Sequence record: EF517049.1
DNA: 486 nt
Reading direction: 5' to 3' (one strand)
Source: a phage
Positions 154-486 of the stretch are shown piece by piece. Each line of letters begins with the position of its first letter. The first letter of the stretch is position 1. The notes under the pieces were generated by a model. It was not told where the DNA came from. It did no database searches and saw only the letters and a list, made by a program, of their open reading frames with translations. A program made the position numbers and the translations under genes.

Positions 154-423
154 ATGTCTAACGTAGCTGAAACTATCCGTCTATCCGATACAGCTGATCA
201 GTGGAACCGTCGAGTCCACATCAACGTTCGCAACGGTAAGGCGACTATGGTTTACCGCTGGAAGGACTCTAAGTCCTCTAAGAATCACACTCAGCGTATG
301 ACGTTGACAGATGAGCAAGCACTGCGTCTGGTCAATGCGCTTACCAAAGCTGCCGTGACAGCAATTCATGAAACTAGTCGCGTCAATGAAGCTATGGCTA
401 TCCTCGACAAGATTGATAACTAA
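154..423 (+). CDS. 4.5: Small phage protein, 89 aa, T7 gp4.5-like (the T7 protein is reported as a host Lon protease inhibitor)
   Basis: ATG at 154 with a well-spaced AGGAG, open frame to TAA at 421-423 (270 nt including stop). Product: MSNVAETIRLSDTADQWNRRVHINVRNGKATMVYRWKDSKSSKNHTQRMTLTDEQALRLVNALTKAAVTAIHETSRVNEAMAILDKIDN. This is the first ATG in frame and the upstream part of the frame overlaps the preceding gene. Length and flanking context (gp4.3-like gene upstream, T7 promoter downstream) fit T7 gene 4.5 from memory. Confidence 0.88.
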   Translation: MSNVAETIRLSDTADQWNRRVHINVRNGKATMVYRWKDSKSSKNHTQRMTLTDEQALRLVNALTKAAVTAIHETSRVNEAMAILDKIDN

Positions 424-436
424 GAGTGATATCCTT

Positions 437-459
437 AAGGTCGCCAAAGTGGTGGCCTT
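437..459 (+). other. Imperfect intergenic RNA hairpin; candidate RNase III processing site or mRNA 3'-end structure
   Basis: AAGGTCGCC (437-445) pairs with GGTGGCCTT (451-459): 9 bp including two G-U wobbles, with a 5-nt loop AAAGT (446-450). No U-tract follows, so it is not a canonical intrinsic terminator. T7 has an RNase III site (R4.7) in this intergenic region by my recollection. Confidence 0.35.
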
Positions 460-467
460 CATGAATA

Positions 468-486
468 CCATTCGACTCACTATAGG
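468..486 (+). promoter_or_regulatory. T7 RNA polymerase promoter (phi4.7-like), positions -17 to +2, truncated by the window end
   Basis: CCATTCGACTCACTATAGG at 468-486 matches the T7 consensus TAATACGACTCACTATAGG at -12 to +2 and at -14 and -15. It differs at -13 (T for A), -16 (C for A) and -17 (C for T). The +1 G is at 485 and transcription runs rightward. It sits directly after the gp4.5-like gene, as phi4.7 does in T7. Confidence 0.85.

Follow-up and report, generated by a model that had tools for sequence, protein, structure and literature searches.

The hairpin between gene 4.5 and promoter phi4.7 of a phage T7 variant: very probably the upper stem of the RNase III processing signal R4.7

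Introduction

The long polycistronic transcripts of bacteriophage T7 are cut by RNase III at ten named sites, one of which is R4.7, whereby defined mRNAs ending in protective 3' hairpins are produced. In T7 this site was counted among the strong RNase cleavage sites (PMC5592923; PMC6938266), and for the wild-type phage RNase III-dependent cleavage of one bond on the 3' side of its internal loop is attributed to Dunn & Studier 1983, as that work is cited in PMC5592923 and PMC6938266. For the T7 site R1.1 an asymmetric internal loop of 4 and 5 nt was reported, together with one primary site of cleavage in vivo (PMC6121014). Internal loops were found to limit RNase III to one phosphodiester, whereby protective 3' hairpins are left (PMC1540722; PMC3867540), while the E. 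coli enzyme needs approximately two helical turns of dsRNA (PMC1540722).

The stretch of DNA described here, in the following termed the window, comprises 486 nt in total and includes the region between gene 4.5 and promoter phi4.7. The T7 GenBank feature tables hold no RNase III features, and the annotations of Yersinia phage Y and of T3 served instead: the T3 record annotates the orthologous stem-loop as 'RNase III recognition site R4.7', and the phage Y record carries the feature 'single-stranded RNA cleavage site; R4.7' at positions that correspond to 424-472 of the window. A full-text literature search for a coordinate of R4.7 yielded nothing beyond papers in which R4.7 is named as a site of cleavage. 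A preliminary description of the window, made from its sequence, had placed R4.7 in this interval, and it is borne out by the T3 and phage Y annotations at the orthologous position and by the naming of R4.7 in PMC5592923 and PMC6938266.

Gene context of the window

Comparison of all 486 nt by megablast identified the window as bacteriophage T7 (V01146) 13431-13916 with 98.6% identity and no gaps, whereby a T7 coordinate is obtained by adding 13430 to the window position. Seven substitutions separate it from T7 in the alignment, located at window positions 89, 198, 373, 376, 429, 436 and 469. Following the T7 annotation, gene 4.3 has its 3' end at window position 134 and gene 4.7 starts just beyond the window end. 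The gene 4.5 coding sequence (154-423, + strand) encodes 89 aa, terminates with the stop codon at 421-423 and differs from its T7 counterpart by the exchanges A74T and G75S. Both exchanges stem from two substitutions that make a SpeI site at window 373-378, corresponding to codons 74-75, and several phage records credit gp4.5 with inhibiting a toxin/antitoxin system of the host. Gene 4.5 also contains an inverted repeat (231-239/252-260; CAACGGTAA / TTACCGCTG), which is 8/9 complementary with a 12-nt spacer and reached weak, non-significant scores of ~9-10 bits with both of the covariance models introduced below.

Downstream of gene 4.5 follows the T7 RNA polymerase promoter phi4.7, of which the window, being clipped at its end, holds positions -17 to +2 (468-486, + strand). 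The annotated +1 is window position 485 (T7 13915), -17 is position 468, and 16/19 positions are identical to the consensus. The element described in the following is flanked by the gene 4.5 stop codon and phi4.7 and is hence intergenic and on the transcribed strand. The gap of 44 nt from the stop codon to promoter position -17, as given in the preliminary description, corresponds to 424-467.

The hairpin at 437-459

As read directly from the sequence, 437-445 (AAGGUCGCC) pairs with 451-459 (GGUGGCCUU), which yields a stem of 9 bp composed of seven Watson-Crick pairs together with U441·G455 and G443·U453 and closed by the 5-nt loop AAAGU (446-450), to which RNAfold adds the extra pair A446-U450. 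Base pairing and RNAfold thereby confirm the 9-bp imperfect stem with a 5-nt loop that had been proposed at 437-459. The minimum free energy of the hairpin is -13.2 kcal/mol as compared to -4.26 (± 2.0) kcal/mol for shuffled sequences (z = -4.5), with none of 200 shuffles matching it, and its sequence is unchanged from wild-type T7. Throughout the T7 genome, 15 of 39,914 windows of 23 nt (0.04%, 8 loci) are equally stable, and six of these eight loci lie at or beside annotated or otherwise known RNA elements, namely R1, R1.3, TE, R3.8, R4.7 and the phi10 leader. The remaining two hairpins are found at T7 17228-17250 (gene 5.7) and 24944-24966 (gene 12), where no RNA element is annotated.

A G+C-rich 9-bp hairpin placed directly after a stop codon, which by the criterion of 23-nt windows equals the hairpin of the annotated TE terminator region in stability, might also be understood as a site where E. 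coli or T7 RNA polymerase terminates transcription or pauses. The tail following it (CAUGAAUACC) is devoid of a U tract, though, conservation resides in an internal loop and a lower stem (see below) and not in a tail, and the T7 records annotate terminators at TE and Tphi only. Scanning both strands of the window returned zero terminator-like sites, and a scan for sigma-70 promoters found nothing. A terminating or pausing role is therefore regarded as exceedingly improbable, and the Rho-independent terminator was rejected on the grounds that there is no U tract and that the hairpin forms part of a longer fold which is conserved. The preliminary description, which held an intrinsic terminator to be unlikely, had thus judged the missing U tract correctly, and the empty terminator scan agrees with it.

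The bipartite fold at 424-473

Folding of 400-486 and of 424-473 revealed that the hairpin at 437-459 is the upper stem of a bipartite fold of 50 nt, extending from 424 to 473 on the + strand. Its lower stem, identified from the folds and from orthologue covariation, begins right after the gene 4.5 stop codon with the 5' arm GAGUGAUAU (424-432) and is completed by the 3' arm AUACCAUUC (465-473), which overlaps phi4.7 from -20 to -12. Both stems are separated by an internal loop with 4 nt on its 5' side (433-436, CCUU; CCUC in T7) and 5 nt on its 3' side (460-464, CAUGA), the latter including the single scissile bond predicted for RNase III, between U462 and G463. Within the upper stem the 5' arm (437-445) is identical to T7 and paired in 100% of the cells of the orthologue alignment, while the apical loop (446-450) located between it and the 3' arm (451-459) varies in length and sequence among relatives, where CAAG, GAAA and cUACGg occur. 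In the lower stem eight of nine positions are paired; the exception is A429 (G in T7), which opposes C468 as an A·C mismatch.

The fold 424-473 has a predicted energy of -17.3 kcal/mol (z = -4.0), and 0/200 shuffles were as good. The minus strand of the same segment reaches only -13.6 kcal/mol, because the + strand RNA uses G·U pairs. It had been anticipated in the preliminary description that the actual site may be a larger fold including the flanks, and folding of the region had been proposed as a check; in agreement with this, the loop-interrupted structure at 424-473 was obtained, 400-486 folds into two stems and an internal loop, and the upper stem holds in a context of 686 nt, with pair probabilities of at least 0.94 except for the outermost pair (0.62).

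Conservation among orthologous regions

Regions 3' of gp4.5 homologues were gathered from 24 IMG/VR contigs and several GenBank phages and gave an alignment of 16 distinct sequences, stemming from T7- and T3-like phages with distant T3-like members included. Across these 16 orthologues the two-stem structure is formed by standard pairs in 97.9% of the cells, and 7/18 pairs show compensatory changes. Five of the nine lower-stem pairs account for most of these, while in the upper stem two pairs changed on both sides and three further pairs on one side. The covariation score was reached by 0/500 shuffles, and in a control in which the 3' partners were slid by 1-3 columns pairing dropped to 35-58%. 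RNAalifold, run with no structure supplied, returned the identical 18 pairs. Conservation thus covers the internal loop and the lower stem, with no tail being conserved.

Since phi4.7 positions -20 to -12 coincide with the 3' arm of the lower stem, and since a palindrome is present at this locus, the signal could alternatively reside at the level of DNA, either as the CCTTAAGG/CTTAAG palindrome or as an upstream extension of phi4.7, in which case the RNA fold would be incidental. The T3-like phages speak against this: they are devoid of gene 4.7 and phi4.7 and yet keep both stems with compensatory changes, so that the overlap with the promoter does not account for the 3' arm being conserved. 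Furthermore, the fold is strand-specific owing to its G·U pairs, as documented by the + and minus strand energies given above (-17.3 vs -13.6 kcal/mol), and the palindrome is private to the variant and at chance level. In detail, CCTTAAGG is found at 433-440, where T7 has CCTCAAGG, and owes its presence to the private substitution C436T, while CUCAAGG is found in wild-type T7 and in 13/15 of the other aligned orthologues. The window, for which 1.9 palindromes of 8 bp would be expected, contains four, a count that is attained in 12% of shuffles. The statement of the preliminary description that the stem overlaps a palindrome at 433-440 therefore holds as far as its existence is concerned, yet the palindrome, a by-product of C436T, does not belong to the conserved element. 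Taken together, an element acting as DNA is judged to be very improbable, and the RNA fold is retained as the relevant entity.

The family of RNase III sites

Two covariance models were used for the family comparison. One was built from R4.7 orthologues, and the other solely from the R0.3, R0.5, R1, R1.1 and R18.5 sequences of T7 and phage Y, R4.7 being left out because circularity was to be avoided. When applied to T7 (39.9 kb), the orthologue-based model identified eight + strand sites with E < 0.05, starting at 13852, 1426, 18500, 5846, 36815, 851, 6412 and 3099, which are, in this order, the positions of R4.7, R0.5, R6.5, R1.1, R18.5, R0.3, R1.3 and R1. In phage Y seven matches were obtained with the same model, coinciding with the annotated R4.7, R18.5, R6.5, R1.1, R0.3, R1 and R1.3, with the R18.5 feature being misplaced in the record. 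The misc_feature for phage Y R18.5 is set on the gene 18.5 CDS (34173-34616), and the model puts the stem-loop upstream of it, at 34072-34124; this is probably an annotation slip. The second, independent model matched the window at 422-475 (+) with 46.6 bits and E = 1.6e-10, the next best match reaching 12.2 bits, and in T3 it returned eight matches, each of them an annotated RNase III stem-loop and together all eight annotated sites of this type, R4.7 included, with nothing else at E < 1.

At the level of primary sequence, the motifs CUCAAGG(U/C)C on the 5' side and GGCCUU(U/C)AUGA on the 3' side are present in the window as CUUAAGGUC ... GGCCUUCAUGA. The sole deviation, U436, also occurs in T7 R1.3 (GCUUAAGG). 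The motif pair CUCAAGGUC...GGCCUU(U/C)AUGA is repeated in T7, at the sites known as R0.3, R0.5, R1.1, R1.3, R6.5 and R18.5. With its bipartite fold, its motifs, its match to the family model, its covariation and its position orthologous to the annotated R4.7, the element conforms to the R1.1-type sites of the T7 group (Studiervirinae). Considering this, the segment 424-473 of the window is with high confidence identified as the T7 R4.7 RNase III processing signal, with 437-459 forming its upper stem. The feature as such is already known: it is an ordinary R4.7 whose T7 background is slightly changed, and its value lies mainly in the correct annotation of the locus.

Two named sites, R3.8 and R13, were missed by both covariance models (T7 11160-11230 and 27225-27310; T3 10616-10642 and 25443-25480). 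Both are without the CUCAAGG/CCUUUAUGA motifs, which implies that the R sites of T7 are of at least two structural types. T7 R6.5 (18500-18576) has a lower stem, an internal loop and an upper-stem base as in R4.7; most of the phi6.5 promoter lies within its enlarged apical region, while in R4.7 it is the lower stem that overlaps a promoter. A permissive Rfam scan of the window returned only two chance snoRNA matches with E > 7, and neither type of T7 RNase III site appears to be represented by an Rfam family. The small covariance model, which recovers eight of the ten named sites in T7 and T3 and seven of the nine annotated in phage Y, with no other matches at E < 0.05 in T7 and E < 1 in T3, could thus serve to annotate Autographiviridae genomes, Rfam having no such family.

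Substitutions within the element

Three of the seven substitutions fall into the element of 50 nt (binomial P = 0.028) and none of them into the upper stem. G429A converts a G-C pair into the A·C mismatch, C436U locates to the internal loop, and U469C changes the neighbouring pair G428·U into G428-C and at the same time alters position -16 of phi4.7. As compared to T7, the predicted fold is weaker by 4.4 kcal/mol (-17.3 vs -21.7 kcal/mol). When G429A alone was placed into the T7 background, a fold of -15.6 kcal/mol with a shifted register of the lower stem resulted, and the combination of G429A and U469C brought back the canonical register at -17.3 kcal/mol. In the 686-nt context, lower-stem pair probabilities amount to ~0.3-0.5 as compared to ~1.0 in T7, where the loop-adjacent pair is at 0.69.

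From the accumulation of substitutions in the element, the loss of stability, the register shift caused by G429A alone and the lower-stem pair probability of ~0.47 in the long context, it could be argued that G429A weakens the lower stem to an extent that renders RNase III cutting inefficient, which would leave the hairpin as a structural remnant in read-through transcripts. This argument has to be weighed against the restoration of the canonical register by U469C and against the position of the mismatched pair, which is fourth when counted from the internal loop and is unpaired in four of nine paralogue sequences, the efficiently cleaved R1.1 and R1 being among those where it is already open. 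Moreover, the upper stem is unchanged, and in the minimal substrate of R1.1 it is this stem that carries the distal box, beside the tetraloop (PMC1540722); the independent covariance model, too, still scores the variant element with 46.6 bits. An inefficiently cut remnant is consequently held to be improbable. As the mismatch resides where paralogues including R1.1 are already unpaired, the R4.7 variant is expected to remain functional, and its mismatch at a position tolerated in R1.1 offers a cheap test of the lower-stem pairing that RNase III needs.

The lower stem is also the part that is shared with the promoter. At three positions phi4.7 deviates from the consensus (-17, -16 and -13), and precisely these bases are paired within the lower stem of R4.7; the consensus A at -16 and -13 would make G·A and A·A mismatches there. 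By sequence logic this suggests that promoter and RNA fold are under dual constraint.

Regarding the origin of the variant, all seven differences from T7 are transitions, and five of them create four 6-bp palindromes, namely those of BclI (TGATCA), SpeI (ACTAGT), EcoRV (GATATC) and AflII (CTTAAG), at window 195-200, 373-378, 428-433 and 434-439. T7 has two BglI sites, one of which is lost through the silent change at 89. In a random-transition simulation, at least five substitutions falling into new palindromes had a probability of ~0.0004. The variant was absent from the collections searched: no phage record with 100% identity was found, and an exact 29-mer search of IMG/VR and metagenome contigs came back empty. 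These findings suggest a T7 derivative that is engineered or otherwise non-natural. The refactored phage T7.1 was considered as its origin and rejected, as reportedly only the left 11.5 kb were rebuilt there and insertions were used, neither of which fits. That G429A, C436U and U469C are jointly non-neutral, acting on processing or, via -16, on phi4.7 strength, or that they were introduced by deliberate engineering, is considered rather unlikely; if true, the balance of 4.5 and 4.7 expression would be altered, or a T7 derivative would be at hand whose perturbed RNase III site must still function.

Proposed cleavage of the element

The motif CUU(U/C)AUGA is repeated at T7 885, 1463, 5882 and 13887. 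The cleavage coordinates which Dunn and Studier reportedly obtained in 1983 are 890, 1468, 5887 and 13892. In each of the four motif copies the coordinate designates the same U, which provides a partial cross-check. From these reported coordinates and the register of the motif we infer a scissile bond between U462 and G463 (T7 13892).

The suggested reaction sequence assumes that transcripts made by T7 RNA polymerase from upstream class II promoters (e.g., phi4.3) read through gene 4.5, whereby the + strand RNA would adopt the lower stem of 9 bp, the 4/5-nt internal loop and the upper stem of 9 bp, together providing ~22 stacked positions, that is roughly two turns. RNase III would then cut the internal loop once, on its 3' side between U462 and G463, and only one cut is expected because the target resides in the internal loop with one strand engaging a catalytic site. 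As a result, the upstream 4.3-4.5 mRNA would end in the upper-stem hairpin followed by CAU, and this 3' hairpin may shield it from 3'-to-5' exonucleases, while the downstream 4.7-5 mRNA would begin with pGAAUACC at G463. Transcripts started at phi4.7 (+1 = 485) would not contain the R4.7 fold. Both the cleavage of the present variant and the stabilising role of its 3' hairpin are presumed.

The 8-bp palindrome TTCATGAA is found twice in the window, at 458-465 and 365-372. Its copy at 458-465, which is shared with T7, has the predicted bond between U462 and G463 at its centre. T3-like sites have UUUAUGAUU at this place, and the palindrome is therefore probably incidental.

Comparison with described systems

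With a Rho-independent terminator the locus shares the G+C-rich hairpin after a stop codon, but it differs by the missing U tract. Fully base-paired RNase III substrates such as the rRNA precursor stems are likewise cut by RNase III and likewise have to provide approximately two helical turns of dsRNA (PMC1540722); these stems are cut on both strands, leaving a 2-nt 3' overhang, whereas the internal loop of R4.7 should restrict cleavage to one strand. The T3 orthologue of R4.7 (AJ318471 12970-13018) also resides directly after gene 4.5, consists of two stems and an internal loop and scores 63.5 bits with the independent covariance model, but there is neither a gene 4.7 nor a phi4.7 in T3, and its lower stem (UGAUAA/UUAUCA) carries compensatory changes relative to T7.

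The T7 paralogue R1.1 possesses the same CUCAAGGUC...GGCCUUUAUGA motif, an upper stem of 9-10 bp, a 4/5-nt internal loop and a lower stem of nine positions (PMC6121014), the latter with an A·A mismatch at the position of the A·C mismatch of the window. It differs by its GCAA tetraloop, its other lower-stem sequence and its location between genes 1 and 1.1, and it is also contained in early transcripts of E. coli RNA polymerase. Closest to the window is R4.7 of T7 itself (~13854-13903), with which it has in common its place downstream of the gene 4.5 stop codon and ahead of phi4.7 as well as the upper stem, the apical loop and the 4/5 internal loop, and from which it is distinguished by G429A, C436U and U469C and by a predicted fold that is weaker by the 4.4 kcal/mol described above.
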